NCBI GenBank assembly: GCA_963738405.1
Contig: CAVTWJ010000007.1
Span: 1 to 36,089 of the forward strand
DNA: 36,089 nt
Direction of reading: 5' to 3'
DNA from: a candidate division FCPU426 bacterium
Lineage (GTDB): Bacteria; Oederibacteriota; Muellerivitia; Muellerivitales; Muellerivitaceae
Shown here: in pieces, positions 6,712 through 36,089 of the stretch
Layout of the letters: every line of letters begins with the position of its first letter
Position numbering within the stretch: the first letter of the stretch is position 1
Notes under the pieces: generated by a model
Told to the model about the DNA's origin: nothing
What the model saw: the letters and a program-made list of their open reading frames with translations, nothing else
The model's database searches: none
Made by a program: the position numbers and the translations under genes

Positions 6712-9700
6712 ATGTCGTCGAAGAAAGTATGGAACGCCTGGGCTGTTATCTCCGTTGTTTTAATCCTCATGTCGGCCCTTCCCAATTGGATGAACCATCC
6801 CCAAGTGGTCAGCCTGATTCAACACCAAAACCTTTGGCTCTTTCTTTCCCTGTTCATCGGGGTGGGCCTGCTTCGCAGGATTTTCTTAAAACTCCCCTTC
6901 CGTCTCGCTGAAGGGTTTTTTACCGCCGTTCTCATTTCCTTTCTCACGCCGAAATGTTTCGACCGGGTGCCCTCCAGCCTTTCCCACCTAAAGATCGTCT
7001 GGTTCACTGCCCTGGCCCTATCGCTTTACGCTTTGATCCTTTTGGGCTGGGAAACCGCGCAGGACGCCCTTAAAAAAATACCGGCCCTCAAAAAAGTGAA
7101 CATCGGAATCCTCCTGATGCTTTTCACGGGGGCGTCCCTGGCGGTTTGCCTCATGGGGCTCCCGCCAACCTATTTTCCCTTGGTTCTCTTTTTGGGCTTT
7201 ACCCCCCTGGTCCGCTATTACTTTATGAACCGAGACCCGGAAATCACCAAAGCCTTCGCCTTGTTTTTCCTGACCGATTGGCTCTACCGCAGTTTTCCTG
7301 AAGTTTCCGGCTATACGGATTGGGCCTGGCTTCACAACTTCCAGGGATTATGGAATACCGCTTTTCTGTTGCACCACTTCCTCCTTTCGGCCCTGGTTTT
7401 CCTGTTTTGGGAAAAACTGAAGGAACCCAAAGCCCAACGGGGAAGGATTTACTTATCCCTGTTCGCCATCCTCCCCATGCTCCCTTTTCATTATTTTGGT
7501 TTTGGCAATTGGGCCTGGCCGGTTCAAATCCTGGTTTTGGGCCTGCTGTGGGGTTGGAACCCCTGGCTCAAACCCCATGCCAAGGAAGTTTTCCTTTCCC
7601 TTTGGTCGCTGGCGGCCTTGTTGATGATCCAGGCCAATACGGGTTCGTGGCTGATCCCGATGGGCCTCCTGGTTCTAACCTTCGCGACAGCTCAGGTCCG
7701 GACCCAATACTTCAAACTGCCCCAGGCTCTCCTGCGGGCCTTGGCCTTTTACGGGGTGGGAGGCTGGGCCACCACCCTATATTCTTCCGGCGATAACCCA
7801 TGGATCCTCGCGGGGCATTTGATTCTTTCAGGATTGTTCCTCGTTTTTTGGGAAAGGATGAGGGAAGAAAAGCACCGCAACCTGCGGGCTTGGATATGGA
7901 TCTACGCCCTGCTTCCCATTCCCTTCATGCTGTTTAAAAAAAACCTGATTTGGGCCCTCCAGGTTTTGGTCCTCTATCTGACGCGGTTTTACCAATCCCT
8001 CGGCGCGGCCGGTAAACTGGGCAAGGACGGCCTTCCGGAGGTGGACTGGGAAACGAAATGGAACGCCATCCAAAAAAGTCCGCTTTACCAGAAGACTGCC
8101 CGCTTCCTCAAGCAAAAGGGGAAACAGGGCGGTGAAGGAATCGTCGAAATTTCCAAGAACCCCGCGGCCCGCAAAGGCGCCCTCGGGTTGTTGGCTTTGG
8201 CGGCCGCCTGGGCCATCTTCACCCTCGTCTATGACTTCTCCACGACCCACATCATCAGTTTCACCCCCCAGGGCATCATCACCACGCCCAATACGGTGAT
8301 CCGGGCCAAGTTTTCGGATGACGTTCAGGCCGTCGGCTCCCTGGATTCGGCCTTTGAGATCGTTCCGACCCTCCCCGGCACCACCCGACTGGAGGATTCC
8401 AACACCCTGGTCTTTACCCCCTCCGCGCCGTTGAAACCCGCCTCCGCCTACCAGGTGAAATTGGATGTTTCCGGAAAACTGAAATCCAACAAATGGTTCG
8501 TCCAGGGAAGCTCCAAAACCGCCTTTGCCACCGAGCCCCTGAAAGTGGTTTCCAGCCGCCTTTTCTATACCTATGACCTGATCAAGGAAACCGAAAAGGA
8601 ACTGGTGGGGGAGATCGAGTTCAACTATCCGGTTGAGATGAACGTCCTCAAGCAGAACCTTTCCGTGGCCAGGGCCGGAAGCCCCCTGAATTATGAATTG
8701 GAACAGGGAACCCTTCCCACCCGCTTTTTCTTCAAGGCGGGCGGCCTGGAAAGGGAGACCGAGCCCCAGGTTTTGACCTTGACGGTCGACCCGGCCCTCA
8801 CCTGCGTGGACGGCGGCAAGCCTCTCGGCGATAAATACCAAAACACCGTCACCCTTCCAGCCAAGCCCAAGATGCTGGTCAATGAGATCAAGCTCCACCA
8901 CGTGCCGGGCAATACACTGATCTCCATCCTCTTTTCCCTGCCGGCTTCCGCCGACCAGGTCCGAAACAACGTGACCATCGAGCCGGCCCTTGCCTTCAAG
9001 GTGGACACCGAATACTGCTACGCGGTCCTGAAGGCCGATTTCCAGCCCAACATCGACTACAAGATCCACGTCAAGGAAGGCTTGCGGGCGGAATCGGGGG
9101 AGGCGCTGGAACATCCCAGCGAGCAGATCATCCGCCTGGAGGACATCCAGCCCTCGGTGCGTTTCGGCGACTCCGGCCGGTTGATCCCCCTGGAAGGCGG
9201 GAAAATCGTCGCGGTCAAAACCATGAACCTGGACAATTACTGGGTCTACGTGAATAAGATCTTCCGCAATAACATCGTCCAATACCTCAAGAACAATTAC
9301 GATGCCGGGCTGGGCGCCAATGTGTGGAACGGGAAGGTGGACGTCAAGGGCGGCCAAATCAACCAGGAAACCGAAACGGACCTGGATTTCAGCAAGTGGC
9401 ATGCCCAGGCCTATAAGGGCATTTTCAACGTCACCCTCAACGGCTCCAACGGCGGCGGCCGGGATTCCCGGGTTTTCCTCTGCACCGACTTGGGGCTGAT
9501 GCTCAAGCACTCGGGCGACGACCTGCTGGTGCAGGTGCTTTCCATCTCCAAATTAACCCCGGGCGCCGGGGTCAAGCTGCAGTTGATATCCGAAAACAAC
9601 CAGGTCATCCAGGAAAAGGAAACGGACCTGGAGGGCCGGGCCTGGTTCACGGATTGGAAAAACAACCCCTATAACTTCCGTCCCTTCGTGATCGTGGCCG

Positions 9701-12700
9701 AACTGGGCGACGATTGGTCCTATCTCCGGCTGGACCAGGAGGCCTTGAACCAATCCCGGTTCGATGTCGGGGGGGACCCTTTTCAATCCAGCGGGTGGGA
9801 CGCCTTCCTGAGTTCGGACCGGGGCCTTTACCGGCCCGGTGAAACGGCCAATTTCACGGCCGTCGTCAGGCACGCGGACCTGGAAATTCCGGCGGATCTT
9901 CCCGTCAACGTGACGATCCGGGACGGGAGCGGCAGTCAGGTGGCCAAATTGACGGCCAAACTCCAGGATTTCGGCATGGCCACCTTCACCTTCCCGATTC
10001 CTGAAGACATCACCACCGGCATGCTCAACGTCGAATTGGGCCTGGAAAACGGCGTCCATTTGGCGAACACCACCATCAAGGTCGAGGAGTTCATTCCCAA
10101 CAAGATCAAGGTGGAGGTCCGCCCCGCCAAGAAGACCACCGCCCCCGGGGAACAATTGGCCTTCGAAGTCGCCGTCCGCCAGCTCTTCGGCGCCCCCGGA
10201 GCCAACCTGAAGGTGCATACGGCCGTGCAGTTGAGCGCTTTGGAATACACCAACAAGAATTGGAAGGGATACCAGTTCTCCGATCCCACAAGGCAGTTCA
10301 ACGGGGAAGACTTGAAGGTCCCCAGCGGCACAACGGACTCGGCGGGCAATTTCGACGTCCAACTGCCCGTTCCCATCTCCATGCTTCCGCCTTCCATGCT
10401 GCAGGCCGAGGTCTATGCCGAGGTGCTGGACACGGGCGGCCGTCCCGTGGGCGCCAACGCCGCCATCAATGTCCACCGCTATCCCTATTACCTGGGCTTG
10501 AAGTGTGAAGAGGGCAAGGAAGTGGCCCCGAATAAAAAAGTCCACATCAAATACGTGGCCATCACCCCGGACGGCGAACCCACCAAGGTGGAAAAGGCCG
10601 ACCTGATCGTGAAGCGCAAGATTTGGTATTCCATCTTCCGCCGCAGCGGGTGGTCCGGCGAGGGCTATGATTCGGACTATTACGAACAGGTGGTGGATGG
10701 CAAGGAAATCGACGTCGACGGCAAGGGCGCCTATACCTTCACCCCGGACAAGCCGGGCGAATACACCATCTATCTGGGCAATGAAGAATCCATGCGCAGC
10801 TCCATCCGGATCGCCGTCTCCGGGCCCGAGGAAAAACAGGCAAATGCCGGGGAATCCACCGACCTCGGGGAACCGGACAAGCTTTCCCTCAACCTCGACA
10901 AGACCCAGTACCAGGTCGGGGAAATCCCCAGCCTGGAAGTGCGGGCGCCCTTCGCCGGGCGGTTGATGTTGTCCATCGAGCGGGAAAAGGTCTTCTACAC
11001 TTCCACCGTTCCCGTGGCCGCGGGATTAAACGTCGTTCCCCTTCCGGCCGTCGCGACCGCCTACCTGCCCAACGCCTATGTGGTGGGCCTGTTGGTGCGC
11101 AAGCCCGACGAGTCCCTCCGCAACCTGCCCATGGCCTCCTTTGGCATCATTCCCCTGGGCATCGATACCTCCAGCCATGAAATCGACCTCAAGTGGAAGG
11201 CGCCCGAATCGGTGAAATCCCAGGAGGGCATCGACGTCAACCTGTCCACCGGCGCGCCGGGGGCCAAGGTGGTCCTGGCCGCGGTGGATGAGGGAATTCT
11301 TCAGATCATCGCCTTCACCACGCCCGACCCCTTCAAGTATTTCTACCGCAAGAGGGGCCTGACGACCTCCACCTTGAGCCTGTTCGAGGATATTCTGCCC
11401 GACCTCGACCGCAAGGACGCGGTGGGCGGGGACGAGGGCGAATCGTTCCAGTTCCGCCACTTGAACCCCATCGAGGCCAAGCGGGTGAAATCTTTCGCCC
11501 TCTTCTCAGGGATACTGACAGCCGATAAAGAAGGGAACCTCAGCTACCATTTCCCGACGGACAAGTTCCACGGCGAAGTTAGGGTTATGGCCCTGGGGGT
11601 GGAGGAAAACAAGTTCGGGGCTTCCGCCTTCCACGTGAAGGTGGCCGATCCGGTGGTGGTGGAGCCTTCCTTCCCGCGGTTCATGGCGCCCGGGGACCAT
11701 ATCGACGTGCCGGTTTTGGTTTACAACAATACGAAGAAGGCCCAGACCATCAAGATCGCCCTCTCCTCGGACGGCCCGGTGGCGGTGGATGGCGAGAAGG
11801 AACAGGTGTTGAAGCTGGGTGAAGAGGGACAGCAACAGATCCTCTTCCACGCGAAAGCCAACATGGACGCGGGGGTGGCCCATTTCAAGGTGACGGCCAC
11901 GGACGATGAAAACAACAGCTTCGACGTGGATACCGAACTGGCGGTAAGGCCCGGTAACCCCCTGACGACCCAGATCAGCTTCGGCCAATTGTCCGGCGGG
12001 GGCAGCCAGGCCCTCTCGGTCCCCGGCGGTTTCATCAAGCAGGGCCAAAAGGTCCGCCTCACCGTTTCCTCCAGCCCCCTCTTAACCTTCTTGGGCAGCA
12101 TGGACTATCTCATCCATTACCCCTACGGCTGCGCCGAACAGCGCACTTCCCAGGCCTTCCCCCTGCTTTATTTCAAGGACATGGGTCTTTTGACCGGCCG
12201 GTTCGAGGGCCGCGCCAACGCGGTGGAGATGTACGTCCAGGCCGCGGTGGATGACCTTTCCAAGATGCAGTTATCGGATGGAAGTTTCGCCCTTTGGCCG
12301 GGGGAACAGGAAAACGGCGGGGATTACCTTTCCCATTACGTTTCCGAATTTCTCCTCACCGCCCAAAAGATGGGTTATCAGGTGAACCCGGATGTGATGA
12401 ATCGAATCCTGAACCGTTTGGGGGCCATCAAGGTCACGGGCCAGGGCGTGGGACGGCTGGACCGGCGCCAGCAGAACGTGGAGATCGAGGACAGCGCCTA
12501 CGTGCTTTACCTGAAGGTCTTGGCCGGAAGAACCGACGCCGAATCCATGGCGGCCATGCGGGATCAAATGAAAGACCCCAAGGCCCGCAGCCTTTCGGAC
12601 CGGTGCTACCTTTCCCGTGCCTATTCGGCCATGGGCGACCGCTCGACGGCCCTCGCGATCCTTCCCGTCCATTACCTGCCCACCAACCTGGCAAGGGAAC

Positions 12701-13533
12701 TGGACGGCGATTGGTTCTCGCCCAACCGGGAAATGGCCCTCTATCTGTTGGCCCTCACCGATGCGGACCCGCAAAACGCCGAAATTCCAAAGTTGATTAT
12801 CGAGTTCGGCAAGACCCTTCAGCAATCAGGCCGGGGCTGGTTCGGCACCACCCAGGAAGACGCCCTTTGCTTCATGGCTATCGGCAAGGCGGTCCAGGCC
12901 ACGACCCTGGCTTACCCTTTAAGCGCCCAGTGGTCGGTGAAGGGGGGAACCCCCAACGCCCTGGCGGGGGAAACCGCCGTGGTCAAGGACGAGGAGCTTT
13001 CCGGCAAAGACGTCAGCCTGAACAACACGGGCAGCCGCAACCTTTACTATCACCTCATGGCTGAGGGCACCAAATTGAAAAGCGAAAAGGAATCGGTCTC
13101 CAACGGGCTTTTTGTCAGCCGCGAGTATCGGGATGAGACAGGAAGCACGATCAACCTGGGATCGATCTCCCAGGGCCAGCTGGTGGTGGTGACCCTGCGG
13201 GTGAAATGCTCTAGGCCGCTCGATAACCTGGTGGTGGTGGACCTGCTTCCCGCCGGGTTTGAGGTGGATAATCCCCGCTTGTCCTCCAGGGGCAACCTGT
13301 CTTTTGAGCCGGATTGTACCTTCCAACCCGCCTTCCAGGATTTCCGGGACGACCGGGTGCTCTTGTTCTCCCGCAACGTGGAAGGGGACCAGACCTTCTC
13401 CTACAGCGTGCGCGCGGTCACGCCGGGTTCCTTCCAGGTGCCGGGCCTGGAGGCCGAGGCCATGTACGACCCACAGATTTACGGAAGGTCCAACGAGGGC
13501 CAGACACTGGTCATCGCGCCGGCCAAATACTGA
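6712..13533 (+). CDS. Bacterial alpha-2-macroglobulin (YfhM-like, intact thioester) with N-terminal polytopic membrane extension
   Basis: 2273 aa, RBS AAGGAGGGG. Motifs TDLGL, DRGLYRPGE, VEEFIP, LAAVDEGIL, PRFMAPGD, thioester YPYGCAEQ, VVVDLLPAGFE, RDDRV, RAVTPG..AEAMY; directly upstream of pbpC. Confidence 0.95.
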   Translation: MSSKKVWNAWAVISVVLILMSALPNWMNHPQVVSLIQHQNLWLFLSLFIGVGLLRRIFLKLPFRLAEGFFTAVLISFLTPKCFDRVPSSLSHLKIVWFTALALSLYALILLGWETAQDALKKIPALKKVNIGILLMLFTGASLAVCLMGLPPTYFPLVLFLGFTPLVRYYFMNRDPEITKAFALFFLTDWLYRSFPEVSGYTDWAWLHNFQGLWNTAFLLHHFLLSALVFLFWEKLKEPKAQRGRIYLSLFAILPMLPFHYFGFGNWAWPVQILVLGLLWGWNPWLKPHAKEVFLSLWSLAALLMIQANTGSWLIPMGLLVLTFATAQVRTQYFKLPQALLRALAFYGVGGWATTLYSSGDNPWILAGHLILSGLFLVFWERMREEKHRNLRAWIWIYALLPIPFMLFKKNLIWALQVLVLYLTRFYQSLGAAGKLGKDGLPEVDWETKWNAIQKSPLYQKTARFLKQKGKQGGEGIVEISKNPAARKGALGLLALAAAWAIFTLVYDFSTTHIISFTPQGIITTPNTVIRAKFSDDVQAVGSLDSAFEIVPTLPGTTRLEDSNTLVFTPSAPLKPASAYQVKLDVSGKLKSNKWFVQGSSKTAFATEPLKVVSSRLFYTYDLIKETEKELVGEIEFNYPVEMNVLKQNLSVARAGSPLNYELEQGTLPTRFFFKAGGLERETEPQVLTLTVDPALTCVDGGKPLGDKYQNTVTLPAKPKMLVNEIKLHHVPGNTLISILFSLPASADQVRNNVTIEPALAFKVDTEYCYAVLKADFQPNIDYKIHVKEGLRAESGEALEHPSEQIIRLEDIQPSVRFGDSGRLIPLEGGKIVAVKTMNLDNYWVYVNKIFRNNIVQYLKNNYDAGLGANVWNGKVDVKGGQINQETETDLDFSKWHAQAYKGIFNVTLNGSNGGGRDSRVFLCTDLGLMLKHSGDDLLVQVLSISKLTPGAGVKLQLISENNQVIQEKETDLEGRAWFTDWKNNPYNFRPFVIVAELGDDWSYLRLDQEALNQSRFDVGGDPFQSSGWDAFLSSDRGLYRPGETANFTAVVRHADLEIPADLPVNVTIRDGSGSQVAKLTAKLQDFGMATFTFPIPEDITTGMLNVELGLENGVHLANTTIKVEEFIPNKIKVEVRPAKKTTAPGEQLAFEVAVRQLFGAPGANLKVHTAVQLSALEYTNKNWKGYQFSDPTRQFNGEDLKVPSGTTDSAGNFDVQLPVPISMLPPSMLQAEVYAEVLDTGGRPVGANAAINVHRYPYYLGLKCEEGKEVAPNKKVHIKYVAITPDGEPTKVEKADLIVKRKIWYSIFRRSGWSGEGYDSDYYEQVVDGKEIDVDGKGAYTFTPDKPGEYTIYLGNEESMRSSIRIAVSGPEEKQANAGESTDLGEPDKLSLNLDKTQYQVGEIPSLEVRAPFAGRLMLSIEREKVFYTSTVPVAAGLNVVPLPAVATAYLPNAYVVGLLVRKPDESLRNLPMASFGIIPLGIDTSSHEIDLKWKAPESVKSQEGIDVNLSTGAPGAKVVLAAVDEGILQIIAFTTPDPFKYFYRKRGLTTSTLSLFEDILPDLDRKDAVGGDEGESFQFRHLNPIEAKRVKSFALFSGILTADKEGNLSYHFPTDKFHGEVRVMALGVEENKFGASAFHVKVADPVVVEPSFPRFMAPGDHIDVPVLVYNNTKKAQTIKIALSSDGPVAVDGEKEQVLKLGEEGQQQILFHAKANMDAGVAHFKVTATDDENNSFDVDTELAVRPGNPLTTQISFGQLSGGGSQALSVPGGFIKQGQKVRLTVSSSPLLTFLGSMDYLIHYPYGCAEQRTSQAFPLLYFKDMGLLTGRFEGRANAVEMYVQAAVDDLSKMQLSDGSFALWPGEQENGGDYLSHYVSEFLLTAQKMGYQVNPDVMNRILNRLGAIKVTGQGVGRLDRRQQNVEIEDSAYVLYLKVLAGRTDAESMAAMRDQMKDPKARSLSDRCYLSRAYSAMGDRSTALAILPVHYLPTNLARELDGDWFSPNREMALYLLALTDADPQNAEIPKLIIEFGKTLQQSGRGWFGTTQEDALCFMAIGKAVQATTLAYPLSAQWSVKGGTPNALAGETAVVKDEELSGKDVSLNNTGSRNLYYHLMAEGTKLKSEKESVSNGLFVSREYRDETGSTINLGSISQGQLVVVTLRVKCSRPLDNLVVVDLLPAGFEVDNPRLSSRGNLSFEPDCTFQPAFQDFRDDRVLLFSRNVEGDQTFSYSVRAVTPGSFQVPGLEAEAMYDPQIYGRSNEGQTLVIAPAKY

Positions 13534-13542
13534 GTTTTCGGC

Positions 13543-13572
13543 CGCGCCCCGGGATTCGTTTCCCGGGGCGCG
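13543..13572. repeat. Intergenic GC-rich hairpin (12-bp stem) between A2M and pbpC
   Basis: CGCGCCCCGGGA-TTCGTT-TCCCGGGGCGCG perfect stem; no U-tract after it on the + strand, so more likely mRNA-stabilising or REP-like than an intrinsic terminator. Confidence 0.6.
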
Positions 13573-13617
13573 AACCTCCCCCCAAAAGGGTAGTCGTTCC
13601 ATCCTAAAACGGTTTTA

Positions 13618-15999
13618 ATGCTTCCCATGAAAAAACCTATTTGGAATCCCGGGAAATGGTTTTTCCGGCTTTTACTGGCCCTCTTCTGTTTTTATGTCCT
13701 CCTGCGGGCCCTGCCCCTTCCCATTCAAAAGCTCAAGGGCGATTATTCCACCGCCTACCTGGCCTCCGATGGCAGCCTTCTGCGCCTCAACCTTTCCAAA
13801 AGCGGCAAGTACCGCTTGCCCCTAAAGCTCGAGGACATTTCCCCCCAGGTCGTTCAGGGCTTCACCGCCTACGAAGACCGCTGGTTCTACTGGCATTACG
13901 GGGTAAACCCGGTAGCGCTGGCCCGGGCCCTTTACCTGGATCTTTCCCGCCGCAAGGCGGTCACCGGGGCCTCCACCATCACCATGCAGGTCGCCAAATT
14001 GATTGACCGCAGGCCCCGCACCCTTTGGGCCAAGATGATTGAGGCCTTCCGGGCCATGCAGTTGGAAGCCCGCTATTCCAAGAAACAGATTTTGGAGTTC
14101 TACCTCAACAGCGTCCCCATGGGGGGCAACATCGAGGGGGTGGGGGCGGCCTCCCTGCTTTATTTCGGCAAACCCGCCAAACTGCTTTCCTGGGGCGAGA
14201 CGGCGCTTCTGATCAGTCTTCCCCGGTCGCCCGCGGCCCGTCGCCCGGACCGTTATCCCGAAAAAGCCAAGGCGGGAAGGGACCGGGTGCTGGCGCAAAT
14301 CCTCCCGATATTAAACCCGCCCCAAGCCGAGGCGGATGAAGCCTACCATTCGTTCCTTCCCAACGGGCGTTACAAAAACCCCAATCCCGTTCCGCACCTT
14401 ATCCGTCGGGCCTCCGCGCTTTCCAACCATGCAGGGGGGGTGGTCCAGCTGGCCCTCCAACCCAACTTGCAGGGGCTGGCCGTGCGGATGCTGGAAGCCG
14501 CCATCGAGCCTATCCGCAACCAGGGCGTCCATAACGGGGCCGTCGTCATGGTGGACAACCACACGATGAAAGTGGTGGCCTACGTGGGCAGTCCCGATGA
14601 CACCGATCCCCATGGGGGCCAGGTGAACGGGGCCAACATTCCCCGTTCGCCGGGATCGGCCTTGAAACCCTTCCTGTACGGGTTGGCCATCGACCATGGG
14701 CTGATCACCCCCAAGACTGTTCTCTTCGACATCCCGCGCGATTACGCCGGTTATAAACCCACGAATTACGAGGGCAAATACAGCGGGTTGGTCACGGCGG
14801 AAGACGCGCTGGCCCATTCGTTGAATATTCCGGCCGTGGGGTTGGAATCTTCCCTGGAAACCATGGGTACCGACGGCCTGGTCTTTTGGATCAAGCAGGC
14901 CGGCTGTATCGGGCGGGGCCGGGGCCAGATGGAACCGGGCCTCTCGGTGGTCTTGGGGGCCTATCCCATGACGGTGGAGGAAATGGTAAGGATTTACGCC
15001 GCGCTGGCCAACGGCGGGCGCATGAGGGCCTTGAGGTTTTTCGAGGGTGAAAACCAGGCCCAGGAACAAGGTAAGGAACTGATTTCCCCCGAGGCCAGTT
15101 ACCTGGTGTCCGAGATGCTTTCCAAGGTGGAACGCACCGATATTCCCGCCTCCTGGGAATTTTCGCCCACCCGGGGAAAGGTGGCCTTCAAGACCGGCAC
15201 TTCCTTCGGCCACCGGGACGCCTGGTGCGTGGGCTACAACCCGGATTACACCATCGGGGTCTGGCTGGGCAACGTCGACAACCAGGGTTCCCCGGCCCTC
15301 ATCGGGCACGATGCCGCGGCGCCGGTGGTGATCAACCTGTTTGACGCCCTGACCCGCTCCACCGACTCCTGGTTTAAGAAACCGCCCGGCATCCAGACCC
15401 GCAAGGTTTGCGCCATTTCGGGCGAGCCCGCGGGGCCCGATTGCGACGACGTGGTGGACGACCTGTTCATTCCCGGCGTCAGCGACAACACCGCCTGCCC
15501 GGTTCACCAGAAGGTTTGGATCAGGAAAAAGGACGGCAGGGAAGTTTGCCGGTACTGCATGACGGGTCCACCAACGGATTATTATTCCAAGATCTTCGAG
15601 GTATGGCCCCCGGACGTGACCCGATATCTCAGAAGCCACGGGAAAAGGTTCGATCCCATCCCCCGGCATAATCCCGACTGCGCCTATTTTTATTCCAGGT
15701 TCAAACCCCACATCACCTCACCCAAGTCGGGCGTTAAGTACGAGCTTCAGCAAGACTTTGGAACGGAAAACCAAAAGATGTCTTTTTCAGTTCAAACCGG
15801 CCCGGACGTGGATAAGGTCTATTGGTTCGTGAATGGGAAGCTTCTGGGGCAGTCGAAACCCGATCAATCGTTCTTTTGGGCGCCCGAACAGGGCAAATGG
15901 GAAGTTTCGGTGCTGGATTCCCAGGGCCGGGCGGACAAGGTGCAAATTCTGGTATTTGATAAGAAGATCGAGGATATAAAACAGAATGGGCCTCACTAA
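13618..15999 (+). CDS. pbpC: Penicillin-binding protein 1C
   Basis: 793 aa. Transglycosylase motifs EDRWFYWHYG and GASTITMQVA; transpeptidase SALK (SxxK), SLN and KTGT; C-terminal YWFVNG PBP1C domain; canonical position after an A2M gene. Confidence 0.95.
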   Translation: MLPMKKPIWNPGKWFFRLLLALFCFYVLLRALPLPIQKLKGDYSTAYLASDGSLLRLNLSKSGKYRLPLKLEDISPQVVQGFTAYEDRWFYWHYGVNPVALARALYLDLSRRKAVTGASTITMQVAKLIDRRPRTLWAKMIEAFRAMQLEARYSKKQILEFYLNSVPMGGNIEGVGAASLLYFGKPAKLLSWGETALLISLPRSPAARRPDRYPEKAKAGRDRVLAQILPILNPPQAEADEAYHSFLPNGRYKNPNPVPHLIRRASALSNHAGGVVQLALQPNLQGLAVRMLEAAIEPIRNQGVHNGAVVMVDNHTMKVVAYVGSPDDTDPHGGQVNGANIPRSPGSALKPFLYGLAIDHGLITPKTVLFDIPRDYAGYKPTNYEGKYSGLVTAEDALAHSLNIPAVGLESSLETMGTDGLVFWIKQAGCIGRGRGQMEPGLSVVLGAYPMTVEEMVRIYAALANGGRMRALRFFEGENQAQEQGKELISPEASYLVSEMLSKVERTDIPASWEFSPTRGKVAFKTGTSFGHRDAWCVGYNPDYTIGVWLGNVDNQGSPALIGHDAAAPVVINLFDALTRSTDSWFKKPPGIQTRKVCAISGEPAGPDCDDVVDDLFIPGVSDNTACPVHQKVWIRKKDGREVCRYCMTGPPTDYYSKIFEVWPPDVTRYLRSHGKRFDPIPRHNPDCAYFYSRFKPHITSPKSGVKYELQQDFGTENQKMSFSVQTGPDVDKVYWFVNGKLLGQSKPDQSFFWAPEQGKWEVSVLDSQGRADKVQILVFDKKIEDIKQNGPH

Positions 16000-16405
16000 T
16001 TGGCCGTGAGATTGGTAGTATTACTACCACTCAAAATAAGGGAAATAATGATTTTCTGGCAAAATGCGAGAATTTGAATAAACCCCTTATTTTTTGCGTT
16101 CAGAGTCTGAACACGATTTTAAAGGGTTTTTGAGGTTGAAATTCTCACGGCCAATTAATGGTCATGTCCTGACGTTTAATTGGCCGTGAGATTGGTAGTA
16201 TTACTACCACTCAAAATAAGGGAAATAATGATTTTCTGGCAAAATGCGAGAATTTGAATAAACCCCTTATTTTTCGTCCTCAGCGGGTGAGGATCATTTT
16301 TAAGGGTTTTTTGAAGAGTTTTGTCTAAATGTATACATGATGTATAGATTCAATTTCTTACGGCCAATTAAATTATTTAAAATAACTTAATTGGCCGTGA
16401 GAAAT
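15997..16405. repeat. AT-rich nested palindrome / direct-repeat array
   Basis: 15-bp TAATTGGCCGTGAGA at 15997(+), 16143-16157(-), 16177(+), 16356-16370(-, 1 mismatch), 16388(+). 98-bp exact direct repeat 15997-16094 = 16177-16274. Several internal palindromes. Confidence 0.95.
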
Positions 16406-16420
16406 GGCAAAGGGGGTGCC

Positions 16421-17032
16421 ATGGAAGAACAACCATCCATTAATGGCTTTCTAAAGGAGTTCCTGGGTTGGGGTAAACCCAAGCCCAAACCTTCAGAACC
16501 GGCCCCATCCCAAGCCCCAAACCCACCTACCCCGAGGCCACACCCCAGCTCCGAGCCTACTAGGCGAGGAGCAAGCTTTGGCAGTACCGGCCCGTCAGCT
16601 AAAGGGGCCGGTATAGAGGGGTGGGATTTGGTTGCCCCAATTGCAAAGGGCAATGGGGGTACCGCGAGGTCACCCCAACCTAGGTCCGAAGCCTATCTCA
16701 ACCGCCGAAAAGGCCGAAAGGTCCATGACTCCGCATGGGGCTATCTCAAGGTCATTTGCCCCTACCTGCTGAGTAAGGGGGAGGTATCGCCCGGGGAAAT
16801 AGCTAGGGATTTGGGGTTGCCCAAAAGCACCCTCAAATACAATTTGAATAACCTATTGGATTACTGCCAAAAGCCCCAAACGGACCGTTCGGCAGAATAT
16901 GTCGTTAAGGAACTTTTGAAGGGCCATCGCGTGGTTCGGGTGGGGGCGGGTAAGTATGTCCGGTATAAGCTAATACCTGTACCCCCTGATTTGCCACCTG
17001 GCCTGCCCCCCGGCTCCCCCACCGAAGCTTAA
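16421..17032 (+). CDS. Winged helix-turn-helix protein with Pro-rich disordered N-terminus
   Basis: ATG 16421 with RBS AAAGGGGG (the track starts at TTG 16391 inside the repeat). C-terminal GEVSPGEIARDLGLPKSTLKYNLNNL (HTH) and RVVRVGAGKYVRYKL (wing). Confidence 0.75.
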   Translation: MEEQPSINGFLKEFLGWGKPKPKPSEPAPSQAPNPPTPRPHPSSEPTRRGASFGSTGPSAKGAGIEGWDLVAPIAKGNGGTARSPQPRSEAYLNRRKGRKVHDSAWGYLKVICPYLLSKGEVSPGEIARDLGLPKSTLKYNLNNLLDYCQKPQTDRSAEYVVKELLKGHRVVRVGAGKYVRYKLIPVPPDLPPGLPPGSPTEA

Positions 17033-17207
17033 GCGTAGGTGGGAGGAAATCAAACTCGATTCTTAGTACGAATAAGCGCCAAATATAGGGCGGTTTTGTG
17101 GAACCATAGTATGGGGTGGTTTGTTTGGCCGATTAGGTTAATTCTAAGGGTTGTTCACGCTTGTGATCGCTGAAATTTTAGAAAACGGGATAATGGGCAC
17201 TGAAGGT

Positions 17208-17232
17208 TGTCCACTAAATCGGGGGAACTCCA
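17208..17232 (-). mobile_element. IS3-family-like terminal inverted repeat (orphan end, element interior to the left)
   Basis: Minus strand reads TGGAGTTCCCCCGATTTAGTGGACA: 5'-TG terminus and TAGTGGACA core resembling the E. coli IS3 end (recalled as TGATCTTACCCAGCAATAGTGGACA). No transposase seen. Confidence 0.5.
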
Positions 17233-17263
17233 GCCTGGCCCCTTTTTTGTACGGGCGAGTTAA

Positions 17264-17308
17264 GGTCTGGTCTGAAATTCGTTGAAATTTCTATTTTCAG
17301 GCCTGACC
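17264..17308. repeat. REP-like imperfect inverted repeat
   Basis: GGTCTGGTCTGAAA (17264-17277) pairs 12/14 with TTTCAGGCCTGACC (17295-17308); shares the GCCTGACCC/GGGTCAGGC motif seen at 17233-17242 and 20472-20480. Confidence 0.45.
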
Positions 17309-17389
17309 CCGTTCAAAGGAGAATTTGAAGTTTAAAGTGGAATATGTTGGCTAGACACTATCTGTTTATTTCTTTTGGGAGGTCCTGTT

Positions 17390-18562
17390 ATGAAGTTTGA
17401 TCTTATTCTTCCAGAGTTGCCAAGTGGTTACGTGGCTGAATTTCACCCCAAAGGAAAACCAGGTCCACTAAAAGTCCATATATCGGGATATTACACAATT
17501 GAAAATGGTGAAGGATTAATTCGAGCGTTGGATGGAATCTCTCATGCATATCTTTCGCAGCTTCCAAAGGAAAAAAGACCCGATGAGTCCCAAATAAATT
17601 CCTTGCTTGCGATAGTCCGAAAGGATAAGAGCTGTACCCTGTATATAAACGAGCTACAACTTGTGGCAGAAATTATTACGAAACGATTTGCGGCTAAAAA
17701 TGATGCGGTATATACCGATGACATTGCTGATGTTGTTCGAATGACAATTAAAGATATAACGATTCCAAGCGATGCTGGTTTTGCATTAGTCCTTTCTTCG
17801 GGGTGGCGTCGGGGCTTGTTTTTCGATTATGGACCCTTTTTTCCCGATAAGGATAGTGACCGAAAATACGATTTCGAAGCGACACTTGCACAGGTATGGG
17901 CCTATATCACCCTGCAAAACCGTTTGGCCTTTTCCGAAAAGCAATGGGAAGAGTTTTTTAAGCAAGCCTGGTTCCCCTATTCGTCTCTCAATTCCGAACG
18001 GATTGAAAGTATTAAAAATTACGCTGAAAACAGCTTGCCGATTGATGATATGCAAAATGAAATAAAAGGCGATTTACTCAAACGGTGTTCTGAAATACGG
18101 TCTGCAATTTCTACCCATGCCGAATTAGAAAAACATAGGGATTACCTATTAAAGACCGTTGAGCATTTTCAAAATTCTGACTGGCTCAGTTGTTCATCTA
18201 TGCTTTACCCACGCATTGAAGGCGTGCTTCGTTCTTGGCATGAAAAAGTCGGTATTGGGACACAGGCTAATCAGAACAATCTTGTAAAAAGCGCAGGTAC
18301 TTCCTTAAATGGCAGGCCGATCGCCTCTGGGTTGCTTCTTGTACCAAAGTTTTTAGAATTTTTAGATAATATTTATTTTGCAGATTTTGATCCAGCTCAT
18401 CCTGAAGGGGTTTCACGCCATACCGTTTCGCACGGGGTTGTACCCCAAGAGCAATTGAATCTTAAATCAGCTTTAACCGGGATGATGATTTTGGAACAAC
18501 TTATTTTCCTAATGAGTGCTGGAAAAGCTGGTGTTAATTTGAAGACTAACCCTGTTAAATAG
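17390..18562 (+). CDS. Hypothetical protein with C-terminal HEPN-like (RxxxxH) domain, low GC
   Basis: ATG 17390 with GGAGG RBS. C-terminal helical region with YPRIEGVLR and SRHTVSHG (R-X4-H), the HEPN E...RxxxxH pattern. Confidence 0.65.
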   Translation: MKFDLILPELPSGYVAEFHPKGKPGPLKVHISGYYTIENGEGLIRALDGISHAYLSQLPKEKRPDESQINSLLAIVRKDKSCTLYINELQLVAEIITKRFAAKNDAVYTDDIADVVRMTIKDITIPSDAGFALVLSSGWRRGLFFDYGPFFPDKDSDRKYDFEATLAQVWAYITLQNRLAFSEKQWEEFFKQAWFPYSSLNSERIESIKNYAENSLPIDDMQNEIKGDLLKRCSEIRSAISTHAELEKHRDYLLKTVEHFQNSDWLSCSSMLYPRIEGVLRSWHEKVGIGTQANQNNLVKSAGTSLNGRPIASGLLLVPKFLEFLDNIYFADFDPAHPEGVSRHTVSHGVVPQEQLNLKSALTGMMILEQLIFLMSAGKAGVNLKTNPVK

Positions 18563-34413: not shown

Positions 34414-36089
34414 ATGATGCGTTTTTATTTCTGCCACACACCTTTTTTTTCAAAAAGATGGGTTCTCTTCGGCTTAATGCTGACGGGTTTTTGTTTTTTT
34501 TCCTGCCCTTCCTTTGCCCAAACCTGCAGTAACAATACTTCCAACGTACCCAATCTTTGCATCACGGTTTCGCCCACGAACCCCTCTCCCGGGTCTTCCA
34601 TCACCCTCACCGCCAATTATTGCAGCCAGGTTACGGGAGGCAACGGCACGGAGTTCGTGGTGGCCTTGAACAACAATGCCGCCACGGTTCAAGGCTGTCC
34701 GACCTCGGGACAAATATTCCTGGTGGATTTGAACGGCAAAAATGTCAATGACACCAACCCCTGCGGGGCCAGCAGCGGGTGCGATATCGGCTACTACATG
34801 AATGATGAGGCTTCCAACAGCAGCGGTTCACCCTGCACCAGCAACCATTCCGTCACATGGGTTTTAACCGTTCCCACCGGTATTCAGGTCGGCGGCACCT
34901 ATAACGTGGTTGTCGCGGCCGGCGGATACACCAACCTGAGATGCAGCGGAACCCTTTCAAACCTCGTTTCGGTACCCATCACCATTCCGCTTCCCCCTCC
35001 TGCCATTTCAGCCTCCAAAAACGTGGAGGAAAGCGGAACGACGGTTAATCCTGGGGATCTTTTGTTGTTTCCTATTAATTATTCCTTTGTGAATACCACT
35101 GGTTTTATTATCTCGGATACGGTTCCGCCATTTACCACTTTGGTTTCCGCCGGCCCGCCGGCAATCGAAAGCGGGGCGGGGCCTGGCGCGGGACCGGGGA
35201 GCGGTGTGACTTGGTCGCTGGGAGCCGCCACCACTCAAACGACCGGTGAGGTTTGGATGCTGGTTCGGGTCAATTCAGGAGCCTCCGGGCCCATTTCGGG
35301 CACGGCCATTACTAATACCGCTTCCATTACTTCCAACGATTTCACCACGCCTCTTTCCACCGATACCGCCTCGGTCACCGTGGGGGCCGGGTACACCCTC
35401 ACGAAAAGCCAGTCCCCCGGTCCCTTTCTTCCCGGGCAAAACATTACCTATGTGCTGAATTACAGCCACAGTGGCCAGAGCCTGCAACTATTCGATTCCT
35501 ACGATAACGACACGGTTGGAACTAACGGCAACGCGATCCAAGGGTTTGACACCACCCCCTATTCGGCCTCGGCGGGGGTTTCTTTTACCACCGCTTCCGA
35601 TAGCCAGAACAACCATTACATTGTGGCGCAGTCCTGCCTGGGACAATCCCAAAGCACGACCTGCACCACTTTTGGTTCACTGTTAAGAACCGGACCGACA
35701 GTGAATATCTGCAGCGGCTACACGGTCGAGGGGAATTTGTATATCCCGGCGGGTGATCCCGAGGGGGCCGACGCCCATATGGTGATCGCTTCCTCCGGAA
35801 CCAACGCTTATATGGTCGGAATTTCCCTGGACAATTATCCAGGCAATTTTTTTCTTCAAAAAAACCTGTCCGGAGTTGTGACCGACCCTGTCACGATGCT
35901 TAACCCCGCCATTGGCACCACCATCACCGCCGGGGTCTGGTACACCGAATTAGCCAAAATCACCTATCTATCCGCCACGAGCCTCCAAATTTGCGCTTCC
36001 ATTTGGCCGACCGGAGGCACCCAGCCCATCGGATGGACCTTTTGCTATACCGACACAACCCCTCTTCCCTGCGGGCAATACCAGATCGG
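34414..36089 (+). CDS. Secreted Cys/Thr/Ser-rich surface protein with DUF11-like Ig domains; partial, runs off window
   Basis: Not in the ORF track; translated by hand from ATG 34414: MMRFYFCHTPFFSKRWVLFGLMLTGFCFFSCPSFA|QTCSNN...ISASKNVEESGTTVNPGDLLLFPINY...IISDTVP...VTWSLG...ITNTASITS...TLTKSQSPGPFLPGQNITYVLNY. No stop codon before the window end. Confidence 0.8.
   Translation, partial: MMRFYFCHTPFFSKRWVLFGLMLTGFCFFSCPSFAQTCSNNTSNVPNLCITVSPTNPSPGSSITLTANYCSQVTGGNGTEFVVALNNNAATVQGCPTSGQIFLVDLNGKNVNDTNPCGASSGCDIGYYMNDEASNSSGSPCTSNHSVTWVLTVPTGIQVGGTYNVVVAAGGYTNLRCSGTLSNLVSVPITIPLPPPAISASKNVEESGTTVNPGDLLLFPINYSFVNTTGFIISDTVPPFTTLVSAGPPAIESGAGPGAGPGSGVTWSLGAATTQTTGEVWMLVRVNSGASGPISGTAITNTASITSNDFTTPLSTDTASVTVGAGYTLTKSQSPGPFLPGQNITYVLNYSHSGQSLQLFDSYDNDTVGTNGNAIQGFDTTPYSASAGVSFTTASDSQNNHYIVAQSCLGQSQSTTCTTFGSLLRTGPTVNICSGYTVEGNLYIPAGDPEGADAHMVIASSGTNAYMVGISLDNYPGNFFLQKNLSGVVTDPVTMLNPAIGTTITAGVWYTELAKITYLSATSLQICASIWPTGGTQPIGWTFCYTDTTPLPCGQYQI

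Follow-up and report, generated by a model that had tools for sequence, protein, structure and literature searches.

We analyzed a window of 36,089 nucleotides, the whole stretch taken from contig CAVTWJ010000007.1 of a candidate division FCPU426 bacterium (GenBank assembly GCA_963738405.1), in which an array of inverted sites at positions 15997-16405 precedes the gene of a small winged helix-turn-helix (wHTH) protein (Table 1). A previous reading of the same DNA, called here the sequence-only reading, had described five copies of a 15-mer in alternating orientation and had proposed that the array and the gene form a possibly undescribed protein-DNA module. We found exact copies of this 15-mer, TAATTGGCCGTGAGA, at 15997 (+), 16143 (-), 16177 (+) and 16388 (+), and a copy with one mismatch (TAATTGGCCGTAAGA) at 16356 (-). 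The five sites and their strict alternation were thus confirmed, with four exact copies and one near copy. At up to two mismatches, the window contained six matches compared to 0.07 expected, and none of 100 shuffled sequences reached this number. The sixth match, at 34605-34619 (-), carries two mismatches, lies inside the open reading frame (ORF) 34414-36087 without a partner site and is probably due to chance. In the whole genome (3.18 Mb), the 15-mer has nine matches at up to one mismatch, five of which are in the array.

Beyond a solo half-site at its start, the array contains two large palindromes, as had been noted before. The distal one (49 bp) has arms of 22 nucleotides (nt) that are 91% complementary, and the proximal one (53 bp) has arms of 26 nt that are 92% complementary, which corresponds to two mispairs. 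Folded as single-stranded DNA, they reach -20.6 and -19.2 kcal/mol, respectively (z = -8.6 and -8.7). The fifth 15-mer ends at 16402, and the ATG of the wHTH gene follows 18 nt on, at 16421, in line with the distance reported earlier. As assembled, 15997-16094 is identical to 16177-16274 (100% over 98 bp), which agrees with the shared left part described in the sequence-only reading. This duplication is tandem, with a period of 180 bp, and because it starts within the distal palindrome its first copy includes only a half-site. Four soil-metagenome DNA runs carry small shares of the sequence, in contigs of 151-248 nt that span neither the duplication nor a complete palindrome, and no RNA run was listed as containing it. 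The same sites had also been read as two units of 161 and 194 bp bounded by inverted repeats. As functional units, these did not hold: the sites form two convergent palindromes instead, and the interiors of the units belong to a separate, dispersed family of hairpin repeats.

Table 1. Features of the locus and positions of related modules in the same genome
Feature	Position	Strand	Description
Alpha-2-macroglobulin and PBP1C genes	6712..15999	+	Upstream of the array
PBP1C ORF	13618..15999	+	Transgly, Transpeptidase and BiPBP_C domains
Solo right-type half-site	15997..16011	+	AATTGG + arm CCGTGAGA; first three bases are the TAA stop of the PBP1C gene; start of the 180-bp tandem duplication
Inter-site module copy 1 ("Y module")	16012..16142 (131 bp)	.	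Hairpin 16012-16029; box AAATAAGGG at 16034; inverted box CCCTTATTT at 16084; second GC-rich hairpin near 16097-16113
Distal extended palindrome	16143..16191	.	TCTCACGG-CCAATT-N21-AATTGG-CCGTGAGA; proposed site for two wHTH monomers
Inter-site module copy 2	16192..16352	.	Unit from 16177 identical to copy 1 for 98 bp, to 16274; after that, another GC-rich hairpin (16271-16293) and about 60 additional bases rich in A and T
Proximal extended palindrome	16353..16405	.	TCTTACGG-CCAATT-N19-AATTGG-CCGTGAGA; directly upstream of the Shine-Dalgarno-like AAAGGGGG; proposed autoregulatory operator
wHTH gene	16421..17032	+	203 residues; 1-18, conserved amphipathic terminal motif (INGFLKEFLGWG); 19-88, Pro-rich disordered linker; 89-100, conserved basic arm (EAYLNRRKGRK); 104-186, wHTH with recognition helix PKSTLKYNLNNL
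395-residue ORF	17375..18562	+	No match in Pfam, NCBIfam or PADLOC; possible cargo
DUF4209 protein, 602 residues	18637..20445	+	PF13910, 58.1 bits; candidate phage-defense family PDC-S39 (PADLOC PDLC05011, E 8.9e-41); possible cargo
Dispersed modules, same genome	C2:22590-22790, C2:161870-162280, C2:198040-198160, C6:10330, C19:27030, C20:50380-50730, C22:116010, C23:147890, C23:415270-415420; window 16012-16142 and 16192-16352		

The protein had been described as a wHTH with a disordered Pro-rich N terminus, and both the Pfam scan and the AlphaFold model bear this out. HTH_20 passed its cutoff marginally (29.4 bits versus 27), HTH_5 (ArsR) scored 20.5 versus 22, and NCBIfam HTH_metalloreg gave 23.1 and 16.9 versus 55 for two other members of the family. 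AlphaFold draws a confident three-helix-plus-wing domain at residues 104-186 and a short basic helix at residues 90-97 and leaves residues 1-89 unstructured; the predicted local distance difference test score is 93-98 over most of residues 111-190, with a dip to 85 near residues 151-160. Foldseek found no significant match, the top ones being AspA (5k5q; E 8.4e-3, TM-score 0.57 on the target) and then SmtB, NolR, CadC and CzrA. With VIA-align, many wHTH classes (Z-alpha, ScpB, ROK, IclR, MarR) tied at Z 8-9.5, so that no specific structural family can be assigned; RacA and Par chains were not among the fold matches listed, which were of the ArsR, MarR, IclR, ROK, ScpB and Z-alpha types. Neither a coiled coil nor DUF536 was found, the Pfam scan giving helix-turn-helix families only and the model no helix in residues 1-89, and no ParB-family match was obtained in Pfam or NCBIfam for the 203 residues, which hold a single wHTH.

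Palindromes and recognition helix across the family

Searching 1.84 billion cluster representatives with a profile of 15 homologs returned 92 proteins at E <= 1e-3, of which 52 reached E <= 1e-10, and no E value fell between 1.2e-9 and 6.5e-6. The wHTH protein is therefore not an orphan, as the sequence-only reading had called it, but a member of a small and sharply bounded family of about 55 clusters, confined, among the genomes searched, to one bacterial family of an uncultured phylum. Members were found in 13 of the 31 genomes of this taxonomic family and in 8 of its 17 genera, with up to five copies per genome, and in none of 68 genomes from 22 other families of the phylum. A tblastn search detected no paralog of the wHTH in its own genome, and we found no curated family or solved structure that covers the wHTH family.

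We then considered the upstream DNA. A helix-plus-wing pattern located 19 homologous genes in 23 loci, and palindromes of the form arm-CCAA[AT][ATC]-N13-23-[ATG][AT]TTGG-arm were counted over 600 bp upstream of each. At least one palindrome, and usually two or three, was present in 14 of the 19 loci. In nine of these 14, the palindrome closest to the gene ends 9-43 nt upstream of the called start (in one of the nine, L074, a family-type start lies 28 codons further on), and in six loci from five genomes the distance between the proximal site and the start codon is 18-21 nt. When the 130 nt upstream of five close homologs were aligned, only the palindrome arms and the ribosome-binding site were conserved. 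At the level of genomes, we counted 39 occurrences of CCAATT-N19-AATTGG in the 13 that encode the protein and 7 in the 18 that lack it, compared to 4 of the reversed control in all 31.

The core CCAATT is constant, and the arm varies among paralogs. In all 14 palindrome loci, the base that directly precedes CCAATT changes with residue X in the recognition-helix motif S-T-L-X-Y. Isoleucine (L069, L070, L073, L076) or alanine (L074, L078, L079, L081, L082, L023) at X goes with T in 10 of 10 loci, and lysine (the window) or threonine (L071, L072, L084) goes with G in 4 of 4. Direct half-sites, which stand in for palindromes in L083 (Ala, T) and L077 (Thr, G), also obey this rule. Small hydrophobic side chains suit the methyl group of thymine, and hydrogen-bond donors suit guanine. 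In a maximum-likelihood tree of 18 domains, the window protein (Lys/G) is nested in an Ile/T clade (support 100/99) and L084 (Thr/G), on a long branch, in an Ala/T clade (98/95), while L074 (Ala/T) stands among Thr/G rows in an unresolved group. Because the window protein and L084 nest within clades of the other pairing, residue and base would have switched together independently at least twice, and probably three times. The recurrence of upstream arrays that track the recognition helix is what the sequence-only reading had suggested looking for, and it supports the proposal of an undescribed module that the adjacent wHTH protein would read. We consider it highly probable, from these patterns, that the palindromes are the protein's own sites.

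From 372 pattern matches we kept 38 sites (at least five of eight complementary flank positions, a spacer of 13-23 nt and a CCAAT-type core; matches in the window's own genome were limited to six already identified, and those of L020 and L082 were dropped). The spacer measures 19 nt in 26 of the 38 and is odd in 35, compared to 131 of 287 background matches. Spacers are nearly all distinct, with 36 different left 8-mers, and yet they are self-complementary: pairing amounts to 5.82 of 8 positions within a site, versus 2.67 between left and right halves taken from different sites and 2.17 in the background, a value that none of 10,000 permutations reached. Selecting the sites by their flanks leaves this test unbiased. 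Among 590 pairs of 27 gene-oriented palindromes, mispairs comprised 28 G.T and 30 A.C. The absence of a strand bias indicates that the symmetry is kept at the level of DNA and not as a stem in the sense-strand RNA. Either the 47-bp element would have to be able to extrude or fold back, or template switching may symmetrize long inverted repeats in this lineage; the symmetric spacers thus pose the question of selection for extrusion versus a mutational process.

These data also speak to an explanation at the level of RNA, in which transcribed hairpins would serve as terminators or insulators after the PBP1C gene or as a 5' untranslated stem that governs how the wHTH mRNA is translated or how stable it is. 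Both stems have high stability, that of the proximal palindrome directly adjoins the Shine-Dalgarno sequence, the hairpin 16271-16293 is terminator-like on the + strand, and spacers keep their complementarity while their sequence varies, with lengths changing in steps of two. We nevertheless regard this explanation as extremely improbable. Apart from the missing G.U-type strand bias, no U-tract was seen after either window palindrome, an Rfam 15 scan of 15000-18000 at a permissive threshold gave only subthreshold chance matches (best 25.7 bits versus a gathering threshold of 54.3), and an RNA stem does not explain covariation with a protein helix.

The segments of about 130 bp between the sites are of a different nature. 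They are members of a dispersed family of small modules, composed of AAATAAGGG/CCCTTATTT boxes and hairpins, and are not specific to the wHTH gene. Module hairpins have conserved flanks and stems that vary from copy to copy, and in paralogous loci, for example on contigs C6 and C19, the hairpins differ although the module is the same. In the window, the two copies share their identical 98 bp, and divergence falls exactly at one such hairpin. The AAATAAGGG box is present 79 times in the genome compared to about 24 expected, and related modules lie on at least seven other contigs. A related 16-mer, the X box, gave 50 matches in the 13 genomes with the protein, 16 in the 18 without and 10 in the control. 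Whole window units have no other match in the genome, and only an inner piece of 26-28 bp and the 15-mer recur.

The sequence-only reading had allowed for a non-autonomous element. This survives in part, for the inter-site modules, and fails for the palindromes, whose arms follow the recognition helix. Of the features of a miniature inverted-repeat transposable element (MITE), inverted ends are present, but whole-unit copies and a consistent target-site duplication at the unit flanks are absent. A high-copy MITE scattered independently of the gene, which had been named as one refuting case, is not what we found, as the 15-mer is low-copy and the whole unit is unique. It could still be argued that the 15-mers are the ends of MITE-like units, or belong to a family resembling repetitive extragenic palindromic (REP) sequences or bacterial interspersed mosaic elements, and that the wHTH gene is merely adjacent. 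The dispersed modules, the excess of their box, the X box in genomes lacking the protein and palindromes without the gene in this genome and in another (G015, see below) would all fit, and alternating orientation is typical of REP clusters. This is very unlikely, however, given the low copy number of the 15-mer, the start-codon distance of 18-21 nt kept across genomes and the lack of an adjacent transposase or Y1/HUH gene; moreover, arms that vary in step with the recognition helix argue against a passively spreading repeat. The array is thus a composite, with protein-specific sites set within a lineage-wide mosaic of structured repeats.

The terminal motif and a candidate DNA-membrane tether

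Alignments identified residues 1-18 as the most conserved part of the family outside the wHTH domain, followed by a linker that is variable in length and sequence. The family N termini read LKQGFLKRLLGWGK, SINGFLKEFLGWGK (the window protein) and PTGGFLKRLLGFAQ. The C terminus of MinD of Escherichia coli K-12 (NC_000913) ends in KKGFLKRLFGG, and common to both are GFLKRL, then L or F, then G. Of 55 family representatives, 25 match a regular expression for the motif within their first 30 residues and 4 within their last 30; visual inspection added four N-terminal and five C-terminal cases. Two of the 55 lack the motif and end instead in a 19-residue transmembrane-like stretch with a mean hydrophobicity of 0.79-0.81 and nothing beyond it, whereas the highest 19-residue mean in any other member is at most 0.37, the value of the window protein. 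In the AlphaFold model, the motif sits on a disordered 70-residue tether before the confident wHTH. A peptide that occurs at either end of a flexible linker, and for which a transmembrane-like helix can substitute, behaves as expected of a membrane anchor, and we think it probable from this pattern that the terminal helix binds the membrane. This MinD-like helix, which was not part of the earlier reading, changes the likely function of the wHTH protein.

On balance, we favor the view that the protein is an autoregulated wHTH tether between DNA and membrane that would bind the extended palindromes before its own gene. Each half-site, consisting of an arm and CCAATT, would be read by one monomer, residue X of S-T-L-X-Y contacting the base just 5' of CCAATT and the basic arm probably lying in the AT-rich minor groove. 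Since the proximal palindrome abuts the ribosome-binding site, binding would most likely autoregulate the gene together with downstream genes (here the 395-residue ORF and the PDC-S39-like gene, and cas1-cas2 in three relatives). The terminal peptide would be an amphipathic helix of the MinD type that targets the membrane from the end of a long and flexible Pro-rich tether. A single helix would bind the membrane weakly, and several copies of the protein on two or three palindromes, which we infer to be four to six monomers, would bind jointly and provide the multivalency that Noc, RocS, Par and RicO gain through coiled coils or spreading. The DNA-bound complex, and thus the locus, would in this way be drawn to the inner face of the membrane. 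DNA binding, autoregulation, membrane association and effects on downstream genes are all put forward here from sequence and models. That regulation and tethering both occur is a more tentative proposal, which we would place a little short of probable.

An ordinary autorepressor would account for the locus without any tethering. The palindromes would be its operators and the terminal peptide would be unrelated to the membrane, serving as a degron, as a contact to RNA polymerase or another protein, or as an aid to dimerization. All evidence linking sites and protein is equally compatible with this view, the fold belongs to a generic ArsR/MarR/IclR-like wHTH class that consists mainly of soluble regulators, and neither the structure prediction nor the hydrophobic moment singles out the motif as a membrane helix. 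Against this, the motif is close to the experimentally defined membrane-targeting end of MinD, and its occurrence at either end, together with the transmembrane-like replacement in two members, is unexpected for a specific protein contact. We therefore judge a plain autorepressor unlikely.

Alternatively, the peptide could bind or stimulate a ParA/MinD-type ATPase encoded elsewhere, with the palindromes as a partition site and the protein as centromere adaptor. A precedent exists in Spo0J/ParB, the paralog of Noc, whose N terminus is described to contact Soj/ParA (PMC4331003). The top Foldseek match, although weak, is the plasmid centromere-binding protein AspA, and ParA/MinD-like genes are present on other contigs of the genome. 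However, no ParA-like gene is adjacent in the window or in the 18 homologous neighborhoods examined, the contigs that carry the loci are chromosomal and large (up to 1.6 Mb), a transmembrane-like replacement does not fit an ATPase contact, and the genome has no bona fide MinD (best TIGR01968 score 112.8 versus a cutoff of 212.9). A role of this kind seems very improbable.

Several observations weigh against a membrane-tethering autoregulator. With a hydrophobic moment of about 0.6, the terminal motif does not exceed helices within the folded domain, and AlphaFold does not draw it as a helix. A scan for consensus promoters and terminators gave a count no higher than in shuffled sequences and none on the + strand before the wHTH gene; with no promoter recognized, the argument for autoregulation is one of position. 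Five of the 19 loci have no upstream palindrome: in L075 a YhcG gene abuts the start, L077 and L083 have the runs of direct half-sites, L080 is a frameshifted copy and L029 lies at a contig end. The covariation was counted on related sequences with few independent events, among them the long-branched L084. Double-strand binding alone does not explain the self-complementary spacers, and half-site centers lie about 2.4-3.1 helical turns apart, depending on the bases counted, a spacing that a simple compact dimer on B-DNA does not obviously accommodate. Finally, palindromes also occur apart from the gene. Five further ones lie beside unrelated genes in the same genome (C1:41744, C2:162066, C2:197935, C20:50477 and a variant near C20:50640), two of which are hybrids of two arm types, and G015, a genome that is 99% complete, has two clear palindromes with an Ile-type arm and yet no family member at E <= 1e-5. 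The independence of sites and gene that the sequence-only reading had listed as a possible refutation is thus seen in part.

A bolder reading can also be given. The elements of about 47 bp would be sites capable of forming cruciforms or hairpins in which the base is conserved and the tip varies freely in sequence but keeps its length and self-complementarity. They would be read by a structure-sensitive, membrane-anchored wHTH protein, and the whole would be a portable cassette that pins the following locus to the inner membrane. We consider this joint reading quite unlikely. If it were true, cas1-cas2 or a candidate defense gene would be placed where phage DNA enters, or their expression would be tied to membrane potential, and other hairpins of this bacterial family with a conserved base and a variable tip would be sites read by other proteins.

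Genes around the wHTH gene and the palindromes

In the window, the array follows an alpha-2-macroglobulin gene and a PBP1C gene. The C-terminal half of PBP1C was not found in three genomes of the same genus, and this pair may itself be accessory. The wHTH gene, the 395-residue ORF and the DUF4209 gene may belong to a single unit on the + strand. No transposase, recombinase, Rep, ParA or Cas domain was detected in the 15 window ORFs scanned, which agrees with the absence of such genes from the vicinity noted before. Likewise, no Rep, ParA-type ATPase or protelomerase was found in these 15 ORFs or in 88 neighboring proteins from 16 of 18 homologous neighborhoods, and the earlier statement that the layout matches no iteron origin, centromere or protelomerase target cleanly is upheld in this respect.

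No neighboring gene is conserved across all loci, and the surroundings of the wHTH gene are variable and rich in defense genes. A gene for a YhcG PD-(D/E)xK nuclease lies directly upstream in four loci. In three loci, L070 (G001:C3:180000-194500), L073 (G008:C79) and L074 (G002:C180), the homolog lies inside a type I-E CRISPR-cas locus, between casE/YhcG and (cas4) cas1 cas2. In L070, the homolog has a 4-bp overlap with the start of cas1, and beyond cas2 follows a CRISPR array whose period is 61 bp (L070 2632-5554). Toxin-antitoxin pairs, a Fic protein, a large methyltransferase and a DDE transposase were also found as neighbors. Given these variable, defense-rich surroundings without a universal neighbor, the wHTH gene with its sites looks like a portable front end for accessory genes.

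We also inspected the palindromes that lie apart from the gene. No wHTH remnant was found by a regular expression for the helix motif within 1.5 kb of six orphan palindromes. An ORF of 395 residues beside another palindrome (L010) proved to be an unrelated major facilitator superfamily transporter, and a ribbon-helix-helix (RHH) gene beside one orphan palindrome lacks an amphipathic end. Direct repeats of TTAAGCGARGA with a period of 21-22 bp (seven copies at C2:197762-197880 and six at C1:41832-41940) were seen at a distance of about 45 bp from the two hybrid orphan palindromes, and one of these two repeat arrays is upstream of a CopG-type RHH gene (L010 9305-9589). Phased arrays of TGGCACGAT, with three to four copies 11-13 bp apart, were seen in mosaic intergenic regions at C1:42000-42100 and C2:22650-22700. 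Orphan palindromes of this genome adjoin an adenylate/guanylate cyclase gene (C2:198207-199247) and a TMEM175-type channel gene (C1:42171-42746), and wHTH homologs in G003 (L081, G003:C2) and G025 (L083, G025:C47) adjoin genes of the same two families; this may reflect a shared regulon or an ancestral location. The two palindromes of G015 (L091, G015:C2:35000-39000; L092, G015:C3:313500-317500) have an adjacent X box and lie in mosaic repeat regions near RHS/YD-like genes. In addition, a variant, CCAATTTTTRCC-N7-GGYAAAAATTGG, which may be a separate conserved site, is present in three genomes of the genus (G000:C10:29837-29867; G002:C79:64257 and G002:C96:35299; G003:C40:21130).

Comparison with known systems

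To our knowledge, bridges between DNA and membrane that rely on a weak amphipathic helix (Noc, RocS, RicO and probably pSK1 Par) are few, come from Firmicutes in all cases and are all tied to chromosome or plasmid segregation. Full-text literature searches returned no account of a small wHTH protein with an N-terminal MinD-like helix and upstream palindromes. If our proposal is true, the family would represent an independent invention in an uncultured soil phylum, with another winged helix and a disordered tether and with several paralogs per genome, each having its own site variant. It offers a testable recognition rule of one helix residue versus one base, and its minimal architecture of about 150 residues suits tests of whether DNA clustering switches on membrane binding. 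The placement before defense genes, including cas1-cas2, hints at the regulation or positioning of immunity functions.

By sequence and fold, the nearest proteins are ArsR/SmtB-type repressors and AspA of plasmid pNOB8, none of them a significant match. Their binding sites are palindromic operators or centromeres that precede the operons encoding these proteins. Unlike in ArsR, dimerization helices are not seen in our model, and nothing in the known proteins corresponds to the terminal helix, the linker or the basic arm. The family also resembles ToxR, TcpP and CadC in being, as we propose, a wHTH regulator attached to the membrane. Those proteins combine a wHTH of the OmpR type with a true transmembrane helix and a sensor domain in the periplasm. 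In contrast, only 2 of the 55 representatives have a transmembrane-like helix, none has an outside domain, and the window protein lacks a hydrophobic stretch. ToxR is reported to tether DNA to the membrane via multiple sites (PMC10629549, PMC11856585).

The closest functional parallels are with segregation proteins. RocS of Streptococcus pneumoniae and pSK1 Par are described as small proteins with a winged helix and a terminal MinD-like amphipathic helix and as proposed DNA-membrane tethers; the RocS helix is described to need at least two copies, and Par, which shares the architecture, acts as a single-gene partition system (PMC11500499). As described there, both have an N-terminal MerR-type wHTH, an oligomerizing coiled coil, DUF536 and a C-terminal helix, whereas our family has an ArsR/MarR-like wHTH, a disordered Pro-rich linker, a mostly N-terminal helix and 47-bp extended palindromes, with no detectable homology. 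Noc of Bacillus subtilis is similar in its conserved amphipathic helix at the extreme N terminus, its variable spacer and its palindromic sites, a resemblance that is functional only; its helix is reported to be weak singly, to need nucleoprotein clustering and to recruit DNA to the membrane (PMC4331003). Noc is, however, a ParB-family CTPase that spreads from about 70 scattered chromosomal sites (PMC8429893), whereas the wHTH protein lacks a ParB domain, is only one third as large and has its sites concentrated before its own gene. RicO of Staphylococcus aureus, which is described to bridge origin-proximal sites and the membrane in origin positioning, has a coiled coil, a C-terminal helix and nine non-palindromic 18-bp sites over 700 kb around the origin (bioRxiv 10.64898/2026.03.06.710092); the sites described here are palindromic, local and paralog specific. 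The family can thus be likened to Noc, RocS, Par and RicO in its proposed way of working, but its predicted features set it apart from them, with an apparently different DNA-binding fold, no coiled coil, DUF536 or ParB domain, and the helix at the other end.

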